Assembly (NCBI GenBank): GCA_030756715.1
Contig: JAVBJD010000002.1
Span: forward strand, 4,085 to 68,084
DNA from: Conexivisphaerales archaeon
Lineage (GTDB): Archaea; Thermoproteota; Nitrososphaeria; Conexivisphaerales; UBA164
Reading direction: 5' to 3'
Length of the DNA stretch: 64,000 nucleotides
Shown: positions 5,520 to 45,535 of the stretch, one piece after another
Position numbering within the stretch: position 1 is the stretch's first letter
How the letters are laid out: each line of letters begins with the position of its first letter
Program-made: the position numbers and the translations under genes
Notes under the pieces: model-generated
What the model was told of the DNA's origin: nothing
The model's input: only the letters and a program-made list of their open reading frames with translations
The model's database searches: none

Positions 5520-6296
5520 TTAGTCAAGAAAAGCTATTGGAGGCATTCTTCTCTTGTGCTCGCTAGATCTCATTAGGCTTATAACTCTGGAAGCGCTTTC
5601 TCCATACTTTCTCATGATTTCTTCTTCTGAAACCTTAACGTCTATGAGTTCATGTAGAATTATGTCCGCAACCTCGTACGCGATACCGAGTTCGTCTTCT
5701 GCTGTCTGACCTGGCCAGAGCCTCGGGCTGCTCTTTTTGCCCGTAATTGTTTCAGGTATGTTAAAGTGAACCGCGAGTTCCCTTACTTCTGTTTTGTAGA
5801 CATCACCTATGGGCAGAATGTCCACACCGCCGTCCCCGTATTTGGTGAAGTAACCCAAGTATATTTCGCTTTTATCACCTGTTCCTATAACTATGGCATC
5901 ATTTATGTTTGCGAAATAATAAAGGATGCTCATGCGTATCCTTGCCTTCAGGTTCCCAAGCGCCTTTTTATCGATGACATCAAAGTTAGAAACATAGGAA
6001 CGCAAGATTCCATCGATGTACATTAGGCGGTAGTTTATGCCTAACCAAGACGCCAGCGTTAAAGCGTCCCTTATGTCTTCATATGGAGTTGATGATGATT
6101 CGGGCATTATTAGCCCCAGAACTTTTTCCTTTCCGAGCGAGGATACAGAAAAATATGCCGTAAGAGAAGAATCAATGCCTCCACTGAGCCCTATTACTGC
6201 TTTTTTATCTCCAACTTCTTTTTTTATGAAGCCTACTATTTTTTCTTTTACGTTATCGTAAGGCAACCCCCTTAAGCTTGTCTTTCCAAATAACAT
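5520..6296 (-). CDS. nadE: NH3-dependent NAD+ synthetase
   Basis: GLSGGIDSS, GNLKARIRM, GYFTKYGDG, SPRLWPGQTAEDELG. Confidence 0.95.
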   Translation of the reverse strand: MLFGKTSLRGLPYDNVKEKIVGFIKKEVGDKKAVIGLSGGIDSSLTAYFSVSSLGKEKVLGLIMPESSSTPYEDIRDALTLASWLGINYRLMYIDGILRSYVSNFDVIDKKALGNLKARIRMSILYYFANINDAIVIGTGDKSEIYLGYFTKYGDGGVDILPIGDVYKTEVRELAVHFNIPETITGKKSSPRLWPGQTAEDELGIAYEVADIILHELIDVKVSEEEIMRKYGESASRVISLMRSSEHKRRMPPIAFLD

Positions 6297-6397
6297 ATAA
6301 TAAATTATTAAATATTGATAATTAAGCGTTTATTAAGCTTTTAGCTTGATTAATAATAAAGCCTTCTAGTATACAGAAATTTTTAAAAAACAAAAGC

Positions 6398-7066
6398 TCA
6401 TTGCTTGCGAGCCTCATCCATAGCTTCTTTTAAAATTTTCACAAGCATCTCCATTGTGAGCTTTTTAGTAAAAGTGTTTTGAGGAGAAGGGTGATAAGAA
6501 CAGATAACTGTTACCGGGCCGGCCTTAACATTACATCCGTGCGAGAATTTTTTTGCATCTTCCGGCTTTTCTCCCAAAGAATCAAGGACCTTAAGAGTCC
6601 AGTAATAAGCAAAGCTTCCCAGCACAACAATTACCTTAGGATTGATGTACTGGATCTCTCTTTTCAGGAATTTCTCGCTACATGTTCTTGCTTCCTCGGT
6701 TATAGGTTTGTTTTCCGGCGGTGCACATTTAACAACTGCTGTTATGTAAGCTTCATTTACTTCTAAGCCATCTTTCCTGTTGATTGAAGTGGGTTTGTTG
6801 GAATATCCCGCTCTATAAAGAGCTTCAAACAGGAAATCCCCGGACCTATCCCCTGTAAAGACCCTTCCGGTCCTGTTACCTCCTTGTGCGCTGGGTGCAA
6901 GGCCTATTATCATTATCTTTGACCTTGGATTCCCGAAACCAGGAACCGGTTTTTTCCAGTAACCTTCTGGGGCTTCCTTTATTTCTGGCACTGATTCTCT
7001 GTACTTTACAAGCCTCGGACATGCCCTGCATGATATTATTTCATCGTAAAATATAGATTCGGACAA
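6398..7066 (-). CDS. udg: Uracil-DNA glycosylase, family 5
   Basis: C..CPRL, GLAPSAQGGNRTGRVFTGDRSG, VKCAPPENKP, SYHPSPQNT. Confidence 0.9.
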   Translation of the reverse strand: MSESIFYDEIISCRACPRLVKYRESVPEIKEAPEGYWKKPVPGFGNPRSKIMIIGLAPSAQGGNRTGRVFTGDRSGDFLFEALYRAGYSNKPTSINRKDGLEVNEAYITAVVKCAPPENKPITEEARTCSEKFLKREIQYINPKVIVVLGSFAYYWTLKVLDSLGEKPEDAKKFSHGCNVKAGPVTVICSYHPSPQNTFTKKLTMEMLVKILKEAMDEARKQ

Positions 7067-7067
7067 C

Positions 7068-7952
7068 TTAACCCAGTAACCTTTCTACGACCCACGACGG
7101 CTTGAAAGGGGTCAGATCTTCATAACTTTGTCCTGTCCCGAGGTACATTATCGGTTTCTTAGTGTAGAACGCAAGATTTAGTATGGAGCCGCCTTTAACT
7201 TCTGCGTCTACCTTTGTAACTATCGAGTGAGAAAACCCGGGGTTCTGAAGGAAGGTCGTTGCTTGGTTTATCATGTCGTAACCTGCGAGAGCGTCACCTA
7301 CAAAGACGTTCAGGTCGGATTTTACTACGTTAACGAGCTTTGCGAGCTCGTTCAGTAGCGACTCATTCGTTTGCATCCTGCCTGCGGTATCTATTAAAAG
7401 TATTTCATAACTGTTGGCTTGAGCGTACTCATAAGCTTCCCTTGAGAGAGCTGCAGGATCAGCGCCGTATTTTTTTGAATAAACTTCAACCCCTATCCTT
7501 GAGCCATGTTCTGCGAGCTGTTCTATAGCACCTGTTCTGTAAGTGTCAGCGGCCACCATCAAGGGTTTGAGCTTCATTTTCTTCAAATAATATGCAACTT
7601 TTGCTACAGTGGTCGTTTTTCCGGTTCCGTTTATCCCTAGAAAAACTATCACAAAGGGTCTCCTCGGCGATCTGCCGTATATCTCAGGAAGCGTTTCTGA
7701 TTCTTGGAATATACCGGCTATAGTCTTTTCAAGAAGCTCTTTCAGTGTTTCGCTTTTTGTGCCGTTGACCTTTACGTTCTTTACCTCTTCGATAAGCTTT
7801 TGCTTAAAATATTCAATAACGTCGATTGAAACGTCAGCTTCTATAAAGTCTATTTCCCTTTCCTTAAAAAATTCTTCTATGTCCTTTTCGCTTATCTTTC
7901 CTGTAACGCTTGAAATAAAATCGGAGAATACTTTCTTTAACTTATCGAACAT
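7068..7952 (-). CDS. ftsY: Signal recognition particle docking protein FtsY
   Basis: GINGTGKTTT, DTYRTGA, DTAGRMQT, TKVD, GTGQSYEDL. Confidence 0.95.
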   Translation of the reverse strand: MFDKLKKVFSDFISSVTGKISEKDIEEFFKEREIDFIEADVSIDVIEYFKQKLIEEVKNVKVNGTKSETLKELLEKTIAGIFQESETLPEIYGRSPRRPFVIVFLGINGTGKTTTVAKVAYYLKKMKLKPLMVAADTYRTGAIEQLAEHGSRIGVEVYSKKYGADPAALSREAYEYAQANSYEILLIDTAGRMQTNESLLNELAKLVNVVKSDLNVFVGDALAGYDMINQATTFLQNPGFSHSIVTKVDAEVKGGSILNLAFYTKKPIMYLGTGQSYEDLTPFKPSWVVERLLG

Positions 7953-37969: not shown

Positions 37970-38363
37970 AGCAGAAGTTATAGTTGAAGGTTCAGCTCTT
38001 ATAAGTTCAACACTAAAAATTGTTGAAAACCCGATATCTTTTTTAGGCATGGTCAATCCAAAAAGGGGAACCTTAAAAATTGATGATAGAGAAATAGAAA
38101 TAACGGGGAAAGTTCTATCCTTTCCATACATGATTGGAAGCACAGTCGCTCCATACATTATTTACAGTTTAAAGAAAAACAAAAAGGCCCCTTTAGCTAT
38201 AATAACTTCTTCAGTAGACGCGCTTTTGGCTTCAGGTTGCGCTATAAGCGACATACCCCTTTTGACGATAAGCCAACATGATTTTGATCTTATAAAGAAG
38301 TTCAACGATAAGGCTATTACCGTAGATCCAGTGAGCGGGGATGTTTACATTGATGAACAGTGA
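37959..38363 (+). CDS. DUF126 / AcnX swivel subunit, probable phosphomevalonate dehydratase small subunit
   Basis: PISFLG.V.P..G, GKVLSFP..IGSTV.PY..Y, AP.AII. Confidence 0.88.
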   Translation: MKVKAEVIVEGSALISSTLKIVENPISFLGMVNPKRGTLKIDDREIEITGKVLSFPYMIGSTVAPYIIYSLKKNKKAPLAIITSSVDALLASGCAISDIPLLTISQHDFDLIKKFNDKAITVDPVSGDVYIDEQ

Positions 38364-39141
38364 GATTGATTTAGAAGGCTTGCTTTCGTTTATATATGAA
38401 AGCTTTATAAAAAATGATAAAATAGTGCCAGATGAGGTTCTACGTTTTGTAAACGATAGTTTACTTGCTGAAGATATAGTGAGATCTTACAAAAATCTTA
38501 CTAGCGAGACGAACTATATCAAAAAAGGAAATTTTATAGTTGTCTCTGGAATCGATAAGTCTGGCAAAGAAACTCAGGCTATCTCAGGGAAAGGATGCGT
38601 TAAACCGCTAAAACAGTTTTTAACTGAAAAAGGGTATAACGTGCTTACAATATTGCAACCGTCTTATGAAACAAGGCTTGGAGGTTTGATCAAACATTAT
38701 CTTACTGAAAACAAAAAAACAATCAAGCTAGCCTGGATGCTTTGGAGCCTGGATAGAGCGCAGCACAAACAAAAGGTAATTGAATGGCTCGCCGGGGAAA
38801 AAAACGTGGTTCTTGCAAAGCGCTGGAGCGAAAGCAACGTAGTTTATCATGCGGCTAAAGGGATAAACGCAGAAGAAATACTAAATTTTGAAAAAAATGT
38901 GCCAAAGCAGGATCTAACACTAGTAATAGACATCAAACCTGAAACTTCTGTAAAACGAAATCCTGAGCCAGACACATATGAGAATTTGAACCTGCTCAAA
39001 CTCGTATGGGAAAATTATATGAAATTAAACTACTTTTATCCTTATGGCGATAAAATATACATAGAAGGCGAAGCCGATCCGTGCACTGTGAACAATACTT
39101 TACTTTCTATAACAAATGATTACTTAGAATTGATGACTTAA
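38353..39141 (+). CDS. Thymidylate kinase-like protein with N-terminal extension
   Basis: FIVVSGIDKSGKETQA, PSYET.LG.LI, DRAQH, PKQDLTLVIDI..E, YENL. Confidence 0.72.
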   Translation: MNSEIDLEGLLSFIYESFIKNDKIVPDEVLRFVNDSLLAEDIVRSYKNLTSETNYIKKGNFIVVSGIDKSGKETQAISGKGCVKPLKQFLTEKGYNVLTILQPSYETRLGGLIKHYLTENKKTIKLAWMLWSLDRAQHKQKVIEWLAGEKNVVLAKRWSESNVVYHAAKGINAEEILNFEKNVPKQDLTLVIDIKPETSVKRNPEPDTYENLNLLKLVWENYMKLNYFYPYGDKIYIEGEADPCTVNNTLLSITNDYLELMT

Positions 39142-39696: not shown

Positions 39697-40431
39697 ATGC
39701 GAGATCATGTCTTGCCAAACTACTTAAAGTTTGTTGAAGGATACCCGGCTATACTGATCTTTAACAAATATCTTGCAATAGCGGACCTCCATGTAGGTTA
39801 TGAAATATCTGAAAGAGAACGAGGGATATACGTGCCGATTCAAAAAGAAAGATACATAAAAAGAATCCAAGAGTTGAAGAGCATTACGGGTGCTGAAGAA
39901 CTGATAATTGTTGGAGACGTAAAAGACAGCATATTGATGCCGACAGCAGAGGAAATAAACGAGCTTGTATCTGTCTTTCAAGAAGTTTCTAAACTTTTCA
40001 AGATAACGATAATACAAGGTAACCACGATGCATACATAGATAAGATTCTTCATAACTTTGCAGCGTATGCCGGTTCGGAAGGCATAGTCCTAAAAAATGG
40101 CAGGGCTAAAGTCGGTCTAGCACACGGACACGCTAGGCCTTCTGATTCGTGCTTGAAAAGCGATGCTTTAGTTCTCGCGCATCTTCATTTTTATATAAAA
40201 TTCGAGAACAGCAAATATCCTGTTTGGCTCGTTGGAAAAAAAGGAAAACAAACGCTTGTTCTAATGCCTCCTTTTAACGATCTGCTGTCTGGATATTACC
40301 AAGAAGATGTTGATGCCAAAGTTCCGTTTACGGATTTCAAGCTTCAGGATTTAAAAGTAATAACGCTCGATGGCTATAATCTGGGAACGTTAAAAGATTT
40401 AAGAAGCATAATAGAGGAAGAATCGGATTAA
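39697..40431 (+). CDS. Metallophosphoesterase (calcineurin-like, ICC-related)
   Basis: ADLHVG, VGDVKD, GNHD, AHGH, AHLH, MPPFN; start at ATG 39697. Confidence 0.88.
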   Translation: MRDHVLPNYLKFVEGYPAILIFNKYLAIADLHVGYEISERERGIYVPIQKERYIKRIQELKSITGAEELIIVGDVKDSILMPTAEEINELVSVFQEVSKLFKITIIQGNHDAYIDKILHNFAAYAGSEGIVLKNGRAKVGLAHGHARPSDSCLKSDALVLAHLHFYIKFENSKYPVWLVGKKGKQTLVLMPPFNDLLSGYYQEDVDAKVPFTDFKLQDLKVITLDGYNLGTLKDLRSIIEEESD

Positions 40432-40511: not shown

Positions 40512-40757
40512 ATGAATAGCGACCAGGTTTTGGGTGCAGTAATAATGATTGTAAGCATATTGGTCATATTCGTATATGGATATTTAATTTTCATGTATCC
40601 ATTAATCGTTTTGCAGATAACTGTATTCTTAGTTGTTGCGGTGCTTCTCGGGATTCTTGCTTGGATCGGATACACCCTTCTTACCACCCCAGCTCCTAAA
40701 CCGATCGAAGAAACTTCTGAAAACAGTACGCAAAACTCTCAAGCCGAACAAAAATGA
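40512..40757 (+). CDS. Small two-helix membrane protein
   Basis: MNSDQVLGAVIM..LAWIGYTLLTTPAPKPIEE; start at ATG 40512. Confidence 0.7.
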   Translation: MNSDQVLGAVIMIVSILVIFVYGYLIFMYPLIVLQITVFLVVAVLLGILAWIGYTLLTTPAPKPIEETSENSTQNSQAEQK

Positions 40758-41479
40758 AAGATTATGCTATCATATATGATCAGAGGCTTAAGAAGCTAGC
40801 CGCATCGCTTTCAAAAATAAGCGAGGCCCCCGCTTATCAGGCTGGAACGAGCGTTGTTTATGATCGATACATGGTGCTGTGGAGCTACAGAACAAACTAT
40901 TCTCAAGAAAGGAGCAAGCTCGAAAACTTGTTAAGAGAGCTTAATGATTCAGGATACATAGAGGTTCTTTTGTTACTGCCCGCACCGTACCAGAAAGGTG
41001 GAGATGTATCACAATTCATGCAGGAAGTTTCTGGATTCGATTTTGTTGGTAGAATAATATTCTTTGACCTAACGCCTGTAAGCAAGATAGGGCTTACTCC
41101 AAGGCCCTCGGTTAACCTTTCAGCTATCCCAACGCTTATAAAATATATGAAAGAAAACGGGTTGAAGGCTAAAGTTCTTACATTTAATCAAGAGCTTACA
41201 ACTCAGGCTAAGATAATAGAAAGCACAGCTGGTAAAAGCGATGATAGCGTGATGATCATTGATAATTATGTGGAAGATCCCGAAAAATTTGTTCCTGTGC
41301 TGGAGACGTACAAAGAAAAAGGTGTGAAGACCTATGTTTTTTCCACATTTTTTGCTGTGTCCCCAGAGTCAATAAAAAACATGTCCGAAGTTATAACAAC
41401 CAACGCTATATACTGGGATAACGTCATAACGCTAGATATATCATCAGCTATTGCAGAATTTGTAGATGCTGTAAGTTGA
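40754..41479 (+). CDS. Ribose-phosphate pyrophosphokinase-like protein with degenerate active site
   Basis: NLSAIPTLIKY, VMIID, VITTNAI, LDISSAIAE scaffold segments align by eye to Prs; catalytic motifs absent. Confidence 0.6.
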   Translation: MKDYAIIYDQRLKKLAASLSKISEAPAYQAGTSVVYDRYMVLWSYRTNYSQERSKLENLLRELNDSGYIEVLLLLPAPYQKGGDVSQFMQEVSGFDFVGRIIFFDLTPVSKIGLTPRPSVNLSAIPTLIKYMKENGLKAKVLTFNQELTTQAKIIESTAGKSDDSVMIIDNYVEDPEKFVPVLETYKEKGVKTYVFSTFFAVSPESIKNMSEVITTNAIYWDNVITLDISSAIAEFVDAVS

Positions 41480-42354
41480 AATGCGTAATAGCTGTTGACG
41501 TTGGCGCATCAAACTTAAGGTTAGCTACTTTTTCAGGCAGAAAGATGAAAAACAGAATTTCATTCAAGCTTCAGAGCTCTGTAAATCCGATAGACTATAT
41601 AGAAGAATACATAAAAAAATTTTCAAAAACATGTAGCCCTATAGGCATAGCTAGCGCCGGGCCGATAGACATTAAAAAGGGCTCTGTTAAGCTGATAAAT
41701 TATAACAATTTAACGATTAACTATGTAGAATCCTTAAAAGGGTACGGCGACGTATATATAACAAATGACTGTATAGCGGGACTATTGGCTGAAAAACGTT
41801 TTGGCGAAGCTAAAAAAACAAAAAATGCCGTTTATTTAACTTTCAGCAGCGGTATAGGGGCTGGCGTTATGGTAGACGGCCACATACTTATAGGTAAAGA
41901 TGGGAACGCACATGAGATCGGGCACCTTGTACTAAATTATGAAGATGATACAGTTTGCGGGTGTGGGAAAAACGGCCACTGGGAGGCTTATTGCGGAGGA
42001 AAATCTATGCCTAAATTCTTTTATAAAGTAACTGGCAAAAAAGTTATTTCTCCTGAAGAAATTTTCAAAATGTACTATGAAGGACAAAGCGAAGCTGTTG
42101 AATTTATAGAAAAATGTATGAAGATAAACGCAGCAGGACTTGCAAGCCTAATAGACGCTTATGATCCTGAAGTTATAATATTGAGCGGGAGCGTATACCT
42201 TAACAATGAAGATGTTTTTATGAAAAAGCTACAGGAACTAACAAAAAACTACGTGATGAACCGGATGCCAGAGCTAACAACAGCTAGGCTTAGAGAAGAT
42301 TCAGTTATATTTGGGGCTGGAATTTTGGCGACATTAAAAGGTAAACTTCCTTAA
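41476..42354 (+). CDS. ROK family sugar kinase (glucokinase-like)
   Basis: DVGAS, NDC.AG..AE..FG, SGIGAG, EIGH, CGCGKNGHWE. Confidence 0.92.
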   Translation: MKCVIAVDVGASNLRLATFSGRKMKNRISFKLQSSVNPIDYIEEYIKKFSKTCSPIGIASAGPIDIKKGSVKLINYNNLTINYVESLKGYGDVYITNDCIAGLLAEKRFGEAKKTKNAVYLTFSSGIGAGVMVDGHILIGKDGNAHEIGHLVLNYEDDTVCGCGKNGHWEAYCGGKSMPKFFYKVTGKKVISPEEIFKMYYEGQSEAVEFIEKCMKINAAGLASLIDAYDPEVIILSGSVYLNNEDVFMKKLQELTKNYVMNRMPELTTARLREDSVIFGAGILATLKGKLP

Positions 42355-42357
42355 CTT

Positions 42358-42888
42358 TTAGCCTATTTCGCTTATTTTACTTTTTATATGAGAGCTACAA
42401 AGGTCTTCAATTAAGTCATCCACATTTTCATAAAACCTAAATTTTCCGTTTTTTCTGCTATCCGGATATTCGCCTAACTTTTCAAGTTTATCTGATGGCA
42501 TGCCAAAACCTTTTAAGATAAAAACTTCCTTTCCCATAGCATATCCAATCAAAGCTTCGATCATCGTTCCTGAACTGCCTCCGAGCGCAATCAAAAAATC
42601 GGATGATCTGACTAAGGGGACGGACCTGGCTCTGTACTCTTCACCTGTTTTTATCAGGATTACTCCTTCAGGCGCTGAGATATTTTCGTTTTCAATCGGA
42701 AGCAAAAGTACAGTTTTCATAGAAAGCTTTACCGCCTGATCTACGACGGTTTTCATTAGGCCCCAGTAACCACCCAGTATCAATACTGCATCCTTACATC
42801 TTTCATTGAGTAATCTGACAAGCTCTTTTGTTTCTAAAGCTAAACTTTCTGGAATTTCGCCACTGTGAGCCGCTATTCCTATTTGCAT
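42358..42888 (-). CDS. LOG / TIGR00725-like nucleotide-binding protein
   Basis: GGYWGLM, RS..LVRSSD..IALGGSSGT..E. Confidence 0.82.
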   Translation of the reverse strand: MQIGIAAHSGEIPESLALETKELVRLLNERCKDAVLILGGYWGLMKTVVDQAVKLSMKTVLLLPIENENISAPEGVILIKTGEEYRARSVPLVRSSDFLIALGGSSGTMIEALIGYAMGKEVFILKGFGMPSDKLEKLGEYPDSRKNGKFRFYENVDDLIEDLCSSHIKSKISEIG

Positions 42889-44893: not shown

Positions 44894-45535
44894 TTATACC
44901 ACGTGCAGGTTTAAATCGTATATAAAAAGCCCTACATCCAGAACTCCTGGCGTTTTAACAAGATCTTCGTACAAGCCTTTGAGATCATAGCTTTCTGGAT
45001 AGTTTATGTCAAAGATGTAATTGCCATTTTCAGTTATAAAAGGATATCCCCTTGCATCGACCCTTAAGTTAGGCGTTAAACCCAGCTTTAATATCTTACT
45101 CTTAACAAGTGTATAAGCAAACGGCAAAAATTCTAGAGGTACGGGGTGATCCAGTTTCTCAACAACCTTTTCTTTTGATACAAAAACGTGTCTTTCTTTA
45201 GAAATTTCCCATACAATTCTTTCTTTAGTGAGAGCCCCTCCGCCTCCCTTTATGACATACCCGTTATAACTCGATACCTGATCCGCCCCATCTACTACAA
45301 CGTCAAGTGTATCAAAGATAGGCTCTGATATCAAAAAGAAGTCGGAAACTTCAAACTTTATCTGAGCAGATGTTGCAACGCCTATAGGCTTTATGCCTTT
45401 ATCGTTTAACCTTTTTCCGAGTTCTTTCAATACCTTTGAAGCCGTCCTTCCGCTTCCCAAACCTATTATGGGGGTGCGCTTTAATGCCAAAACCTTCTGT
45501 TCTAAAGCACCTAACGCTAGATCGAGTCCCTGCAT
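44894..45535 (-). CDS. rpiA: Ribose-5-phosphate isomerase A
   Basis: GLGSGRT, DGADQV, IKGGGGAL..E, TENGNYIFD. Confidence 0.95.
   Translation of the reverse strand: MQGLDLALGALEQKVLALKRTPIIGLGSGRTASKVLKELGKRLNDKGIKPIGVATSAQIKFEVSDFFLISEPIFDTLDVVVDGADQVSSYNGYVIKGGGGALTKERIVWEISKERHVFVSKEKVVEKLDHPVPLEFLPFAYTLVKSKILKLGLTPNLRVDARGYPFITENGNYIFDINYPESYDLKGLYEDLVKTPGVLDVGLFIYDLNLHVV

Follow-up and report, generated by a model that had tools for sequence, protein, structure and literature searches.

The protein encoded at 40754-41479 of the stretch of DNA analyzed here, denoted pseudo-Prs, is predicted to adopt the full two-lobe fold of PRPP synthetase (Prs) and, judging by alignment with canonical Prs of the same archaeal order, has lost all six catalytic elements of that enzyme. 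Its gene is live, is under strong purifying selection and has passed vertically through two related families of Nitrososphaeria that are uncultured and come from hot springs. PRPP synthesis by such a protein is very unlikely, and we propose that it may serve as a non-catalytic binder or regulator derived from Prs. The coordinates of the genes and of the motif-equivalent segments are given in Table 1; unless another locus is named, they refer to the window, i.e. the whole 64,000-nucleotide stretch that was analyzed.

A Prs fold and the loss of its catalytic elements

The assignment of the fold comes from structure prediction and profile comparison. The AF2 model of pseudo-Prs has a mean pLDDT of 83.5 and a pTM of 0.78, and all its top Foldseek matches in the PDB are Prs or PAP structures (E about 1e-8, TMq 0.70–0.76). 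In VIA-align, 38 Prs/PAP entries, including the archaeal enzymes 3MBI, 4TWB and 1U9Y, score with Z of 17.3–19.2, compared with 8.4 for the next unrelated fold; these alignments comprise 223–233 residues spanning positions 3–241, with an rmsd of about 3.2 Å. Profile comparison with hhalign, using 14 pseudo-Prs members and 12 canonical Prs from the same order, gave a probability of 96.2% (E 2e-9) over 238 columns, end to end. A PDB search with the single sequence reached PAP39/PAP41 at E of about 0.01–0.02, and a profile of nine orthologues reached PAP41 at 9e-5 and PAP39 at 1.8e-4. The identity between pseudo-Prs and the Prs of its own lineage is 16–18%, and the protein falls short of the Pfam family models for Prs (PF13793; PF14572/PF00156): its one match to them, PF14572, scores 15.8 bits (E 0.014) where the gathering cut-off is 27, and the Pfam scan yields no match to PF13793, the model of the Prs N-domain.

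Several other matches were rejected. The designed PPR and alpha-solenoid proteins that head the phmmer/hmmsearch lists (6EEN, 4OZS) owe their rank to summed matches of a single 25-residue helix-turn segment to a repeat, and the weak Pfam matches to HAD, NYN and Arfaptin, as well as a 17-bit PADLOC match to PDC-S05, were judged to be noise.

The state of each motif was read from MAFFT and hhalign alignments with the two canonical Prs of the same genome, and loss was judged against the invariant columns of the 12 canonical Prs of the order. On these alignments, every catalytic element is gone, by substitution or by deletion (Table 1). The two deletions, of the FLAG hairpin in the N-domain and of the catalytic flexible loop in the C-domain, are the reason why pseudo-Prs is about 60 residues shorter than Prs. 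The catalytic loop is absent from all 14 family members. The FLAG deletion itself is found in the three genera denoted g1, g2 and g3, and in the deep-branching members the hairpin keeps its length and loses its F, D and E residues; these members also still have an Asp at the GPD position. The deep-branching proteins have 259 and 244 aa. Degeneration thus proceeded in steps, and it is a less reduced form that occurs in the second GTDB family (f4, see below).

Table 1. Positions of pseudo-Prs, its neighbors, its motif-equivalent segments and the canonical prs genes of the same genome.
Feature	Coordinates	Strand	Details
pseudo-Prs (Prs-derived pseudoenzyme)	40754..41479	+	241 aa, stop-free translation
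Metallophosphoesterase	39697..40431	+	244 aa from ATG at 39697; mechanical ORF from 39649
Small two-TM membrane protein	40512..40757	+	81 aa from ATG at 40512
ROK-family sugar kinase	41476..42354	+	292 aa, TTG start
Deleted N-domain FLAG hairpin (F-P-D-x-E-x-Y-V-R-I), ~14 residues	40838..40843	+	between residues about 29 and 30
PYARQDE (RF-loop start) equivalent, P76-D84, PAPYQKGGD	40979..41005	+	R-Q-D replaced by K-G-G
VDxH equivalent FDLTP and invariant loop K111..S123 (F104-S123)	41063..41122	+	His replaced by Thr
GPDxEA pyrophosphate/Mg loop equivalent, T143-L148, TFNQEL	41180..41197	+	Asp replaced by Asn145
Deleted catalytic flexible loop (C-domain beta9-beta10 hairpin, K-x-R), ~24 residues	41213..41218	+	near I154/I155
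Ribose-5-phosphate loop (VDDIISTGxT) equivalent, I169-F179, IDNYVEDPEKF	41258..41290	+	only D170 kept
S-S-D-T-V motif equivalent, I214-D222, ITTNAIYWD (T-T-N-A-I)	41393..41419	+	Asp replaced by invariant N217
Canonical prs paralogues	L001:958-1860 (contig C103); L002:961-1851 (contig C3)		both pass PF13793 and PF00156

Three acidic ligands of Prs, namely the Asp of GPD, the second of the two in DD and that of SDT, have become near-invariant Asn residues (N145, N171 and N217); only D105 and D170 are common to Prs and pseudo-Prs, and both are invariant. Where VDxH has its histidine, the family members have T, V or L. The F104–S123 region contains the 9 consecutive residues with the highest conservation in the family, and the loop within it is the part of the model with the lowest confidence (pLDDT <50 at 112–120). 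The phosphate-binding half of the ribose-5-phosphate loop is acidic and variable. The original prediction, made from the sequence of the window, had described a Prs-shaped scaffold of 241 aa with altered or missing motifs and had suggested a structure search; the model and the structural matches bear out the scaffold, with Prs and PAP ranking at the top in a PRTase-like two-lobe fold, and the motif readings (PAPYQKGG, FDLT, DNYVEDPEKF, and the missing PD.G and KxR) all recur in the alignments, as does the length.

The chemistry of Prs is provided for elsewhere in the genome (1.26 Mb, 91% complete), where a search for canonical prs, also suggested in that prediction, finds two intact genes on other contigs, encoding proteins of 300 and 296 aa in which no invariant residue of the Prs alignment of the order is missing. 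At least one canonical prs is present in 33 of the 36 genomes of the order. The presence of pseudo-Prs shows no evident link to the copy number of canonical prs, with one or two copies found both in genomes that have pseudo-Prs and in those in which it has no match, and among the loci examined the pseudo-Prs gene is never adjacent to prs.

The canonical genes have some features of their own. The two paralogues of this genome are only 37% identical to each other, one of them lies head to tail with a gene for an FGGY-kinase C-domain, and the two prs types are patchily distributed across the order, with one or two per genome. In one genome of the same genus (G018, 92% complete) and in two less complete genomes of that genus, the Prs N-domain model has no match; the gene is probably located in assembly gaps.

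Selection, inheritance and gene neighborhood

The nine orthologues of pseudo-Prs, all of 241 aa and 60–87% identical, share 91 invariant columns, and the Nei-Gojobori dN/dS for pairs with unsaturated dS is 0.04–0.13, values that point to a live gene under strong purifying selection. The original prediction had named absent or decaying orthologues as an outcome that would count against it, and the opposite is seen. Among 301 sampled Nitrososphaeria genomes, pseudo-Prs is present, with open frames, in 16 of the 16 other genomes of the GTDB family to which the window belongs (f1) and in both genomes of the sister family f4; the frames are intact in all 20 genomes with a match. Taken together, the fold, the full-length homology, the loss of motifs, the purifying selection and the two intact canonical prs genes sustain the description of the protein as an inactive Prs homologue.

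The distribution of the family is narrow. Pseudo-Prs was not found in the two other families of the order, including their closed or 99% complete genomes, and outside the order the 301-genome sample contains only one marginal partial match (E 6.7e-4, limited to residues 150–237, in an open frame of 304 aa), which was taken as a canonical Prs. HMMER, run in filter-only mode and over all lengths against 1.84 billion representative proteins, returned six hits, comprising four full-length proteins (the query included) and two short fragments, and no fused or otherwise longer form. All named records with the family are MAGs of uncultured hot-spring Nitrososphaeria or ‘Thaumarchaeota’, and the sequencing runs listed for the locus consist of hot-spring metagenome DNA only. 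In the tree, the pseudo-Prs family is monophyletic, with an internal topology that matches the taxonomy, as would be expected of vertical inheritance in two related families. The branch that separates it from Prs is very long, at about 1.85 changes per site; when the parent paralogue was sought in the Prs tree, this branch had no settled attachment, and the risk of long-branch artifacts was flagged.

The phosphoesterase, membrane protein and ROK kinase listed as neighbors in the original prediction are all found, with domain matches for the two enzymes. The metallophosphoesterase matches PF00149 (E 2.6e-5) and TIGR00024, the archaeal SbcD-related putative phosphoesterase (E 7e-29, under the model cut-off), and its start at 39697 is favored by the starts of the orthologues. 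It is separated from the two-TM gene by an 80-nt A/T-rich gap with TATA-like A/T boxes, and the junctions that follow are tight, with 4-nt overlaps between the two-TM stop and the pseudo-Prs start (ATGA) and between the pseudo-Prs stop and the ROK start (TTGA). The ROK kinase matches PF00480 (E 6e-43), and the closest NCBIfam model is that of the Pyrobaculum-type ATP-dependent glucokinase (E 1e-70, under the cut-off); the residues of its ATP-binding DxGxT motif and of the Zn-binding Cys/His motif are invariant in nine orthologues.

Some additional features of the locus are worth recording. The apparent TTG start of the ROK gene is seen in the genus of the window (L-K/R-C-...-A-V-D-V-G-A), and the other genera have an ATG in the same register. 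The two-TM protein has a conserved tail, W-I-G-Y-T-L-L-T-T-P-A-P-K-P, and belongs to no Pfam family above the cut-off. Convergent to the ROK gene is a SLOG cluster-4 (LOG-like) gene (window 42358-42888, minus strand), and 2.5 kb further on lies the gene for ribose-5-phosphate isomerase A (window 44894-45535, minus strand), both of which are syntenic in g1–g3; a thymidylate-kinase-like gene is located at 38341-39141. This region of the window is rich in nucleotide and pentose genes, possibly by coincidence.

Across lineages, the neighborhood is conserved only in part. The order of the two-TM, pseudo-Prs and ROK genes is kept in every locus examined from g1, g2 and g3, nearly always with the phosphoesterase upstream, and the window shares the 4-nt overlaps at both junctions with most other loci of these genera. 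In the genus g4 (L016:4986-6023 and 6168-7928), the pseudo-Prs homologue is directly downstream of an adenosine deaminase gene (PF00962, E 4e-89) and is also next to a divergently transcribed adenine deaminase gene and an MFS transporter gene; this purine-salvage setting is absent from the window. In the family f4, the pseudo-Prs gene abuts those for a UPF0020 methyltransferase (2-nt gap) and RNase Z. Both g4 and f4 possess the pseudo-Prs, ROK and two-TM genes, all apart, with the ROK orthologue among other neighbors. The two-TM protein is present in 35 of the 36 genomes of the order, with 46–60% identity and in varied contexts, including families in which pseudo-Prs has no match. From these gene orders, the suspected operon is a lineage-specific array of two widely held genes around pseudo-Prs in compact genomes; because the string is kept in three closely related genera only and the genes are apart elsewhere, it is weak evidence for a common function. 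The conservation of the operon, a check suggested in the original prediction, thus extends to g1–g3, and not to g4 and f4.

Comparison with known Prs pseudoenzymes

The best known inactive relatives of Prs, PRPSAP1 and PRPSAP2, originate from class I PRPS, with which they still share about 40–50% identity, and their association with Prs is documented. In Prs dimers, the FLAG hairpin completes the ATP site of the neighboring subunit. The structures of these proteins, PAP39/PAP41 (2C4K, 2JI4), are the best sequence matches to pseudo-Prs among solved structures (Z 17.7–17.9), and the likeness goes further, to a full-length Prs fold with replaced catalytic residues that is selected alongside an active Prs. 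The differences lie in the two hairpins and in the degree of divergence. The FLAG region and both dimer interfaces are still present in PRPSAPs, whose catalytic flexible loop is enlarged by insertions (NHRs; PMC12238573), whereas pseudo-Prs is devoid of the FLAG residues and has deleted the loop that the PRPSAPs expand, so that both hairpins are removed; its identity to the Prs of its own lineage is far below that of PRPSAPs to PRPS. As an analogy, then, the proposed archaeal counterpart of PRPSAP1/2 holds, both being dead Prs folds, but the parallel breaks down at the lost FLAG residues and the deleted catalytic loop.

Recent pan-domain surveys regard the possession of several PRPS genes, and of PRPS pseudoenzymes, as a strategy of eukaryotes, with all 37 events being eukaryotic, and in the same surveys archaeal PRPS diversity is limited to class III and the halophile class XII (PMC13252144, PMC12238573). 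The 37 eukaryotic pseudoenzymes, each of independent origin, were judged likely to associate with the parent active PRPS (PMC13252144). The sequence data argue for an origin of pseudo-Prs that is independent of the opisthokont class I duplication, because its members come from just two families of a single archaeal order and form a monophyletic long branch; the tree behind this argument comprises archaeal Prs and pseudo-Prs only.

With the archaeal class III Prs, such as those of Sulfolobus (4TWB), Thermoplasma (3MBI) and Methanocaldococcus (1U9Y) and the two of its own genome, pseudo-Prs shares the two PRTase-like lobes, the order of secondary-structure elements and an end-to-end alignment. 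It differs from them in having none of the elements that bind substrate, metal and the transition state, in its shorter length and in scoring under the Pfam thresholds.

In the ESM Atlas, several clusters of short Prs-like proteins (244–284 aa), of phage (Uroviricota) and archaeal origin, have cosine values of 0.87–0.88 to pseudo-Prs. These clusters resemble it in length and in Prs-like features and are to be taken as leads only (<0.9), most of them carrying Prs or PRTase domains of Pfam. Prs-like proteins of such short length may occur more widely than one would expect from the canonical classes.

Proposed role and its alternatives

By analogy with the eukaryotic pseudoenzymes, pseudo-Prs could be a non-catalytic, Prs-derived binder or regulator that works through Prs-type pairing, a proposal that we hold with as much doubt as confidence. 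An old duplicate of an archaeal Prs would have kept both PRTase-like lobes while losing all the elements for the binding of ATP, Mg and ribose 5-phosphate, along with the two protruding parts of the enzyme, the FLAG hairpin and the catalytic flexible loop. The resulting protein would make no PRPP and would act by binding rather than by Prs chemistry. It would pair via a putative Prs-type dimer surface, forming either homodimers or heterodimers with catalytic class III Prs, a view taken because the eukaryotic PRPS pseudoenzymes are thought to stay with their parent active enzyme (PMC13252144). A heterodimer of this kind would leave the ATP site of the partner incomplete, and since pseudo-Prs has no FLAG residues to donate, PRPP synthesis is expected to be damped rather than supported. 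A ligand that controls this behavior may bind in the remodeled, conserved cleft, with its three Asp-to-Asn replacements and its invariant flexible loop. The cleft positions equivalent to the Prs motifs are indeed the more conserved ones, with a mean entropy of 1.11 compared with 1.55 for the rest of the protein (Mann-Whitney p 3e-4).

Several observations count against pairing. With an identity of only 16–18% and a very long branch, retention of the dimer interface is an assumption; part of the dimer contact is lost together with the FLAG hairpin; the gene is never beside prs, and its neighbors differ between lineages; and a scaffold role accounts for the conservation of the cleft no better than a new ligand-binding or catalytic function would.

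Such a new function, in which the inter-lobe cleft would bind a new and probably unphosphorylated ligand (a sugar or a nucleoside) and the protein would be a Prs-independent sensor or a new enzyme, is the strongest of the alternatives, even if rather unlikely. It would account for the fact that the positions equivalent to the Prs active site are the best-conserved part of the family, for the near-invariant Asn residues that replace the metal- and ribose-binding Asp, for the invariance of D105 and D170, and for the invariant loop 111–123 that is predicted to be flexible; the acidic, variable character of the former phosphate-binding half of the ribose-5-phosphate loop and the position of the g4 gene after adenosine deaminase and beside adenine deaminase agree with it too. 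However, the motif positions are located at the ends of core strands, where structural conservation would be expected anyway, the neighborhood is inconsistent between the lineages, and no candidate ligand, catalytic constellation or related characterized family was found. A partnership limited to the genus of the window, in which pseudo-Prs, the co-translated TM protein and the ROK glucokinase would act together and pseudo-Prs might, for instance, tether sugar phosphorylation to the membrane or regulate it there, is less probable still. The invariable gene order in g1–g3, the overlaps and the frequent presence of the phosphoesterase upstream are what such a module would leave in the genomes, but g1–g3 are close kin, for which synteny is weak evidence, and these compact genomes form tight junctions with any neighbor, as the methyltransferase gene in f4 illustrates. 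Moreover, in g4 and f4 the three genes coexist apart, and the TM protein is nearly universal in the order, including families in which pseudo-Prs has no match. A complex prediction for pseudo-Prs and the ROK kinase, both entered as alignments, scored 0.00, which speaks neither for nor against binding. Finally, the loss of all catalytic motifs and of about 60 residues could be read as the mark of a prs duplicate in decay, or of one that persists as a relic with no function. This is hardly credible for a gene with such low dN/dS, with 91 invariant columns among nine orthologues that diverge down to 60% identity, with intact frames wherever it is matched and with a confident compact fold in the AF2 model; the data on selection and conservation refute it.

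A more far-reaching reading is tentative and, in our estimate, somewhat more doubtful than the pairing proposal: pseudo-Prs could be the first PRPS pseudoenzyme known from prokaryotes, built differently from those of eukaryotes as a ‘shaved’ Prs that lacks both hairpins, and acting as a FLAG-less damper of class III Prs that responds to a ligand in its conserved Asp-to-Asn cleft, or else as a new ligand sensor outside the Prs complex. The practical reach of the finding is limited, given that the family is tiny and known from uncultured hot-spring archaea only and that its function is deduced from comparison. A selectively maintained archaeal Prs pseudoenzyme would nevertheless show that the route known from eukaryotes has also been taken in prokaryotes, in the archaeal case by deletion of the loops, compared with their expansion in eukaryotes, and pseudo-Prs would offer a minimal, thermostable system for studying the role of a catalytically dead Prs subunit.
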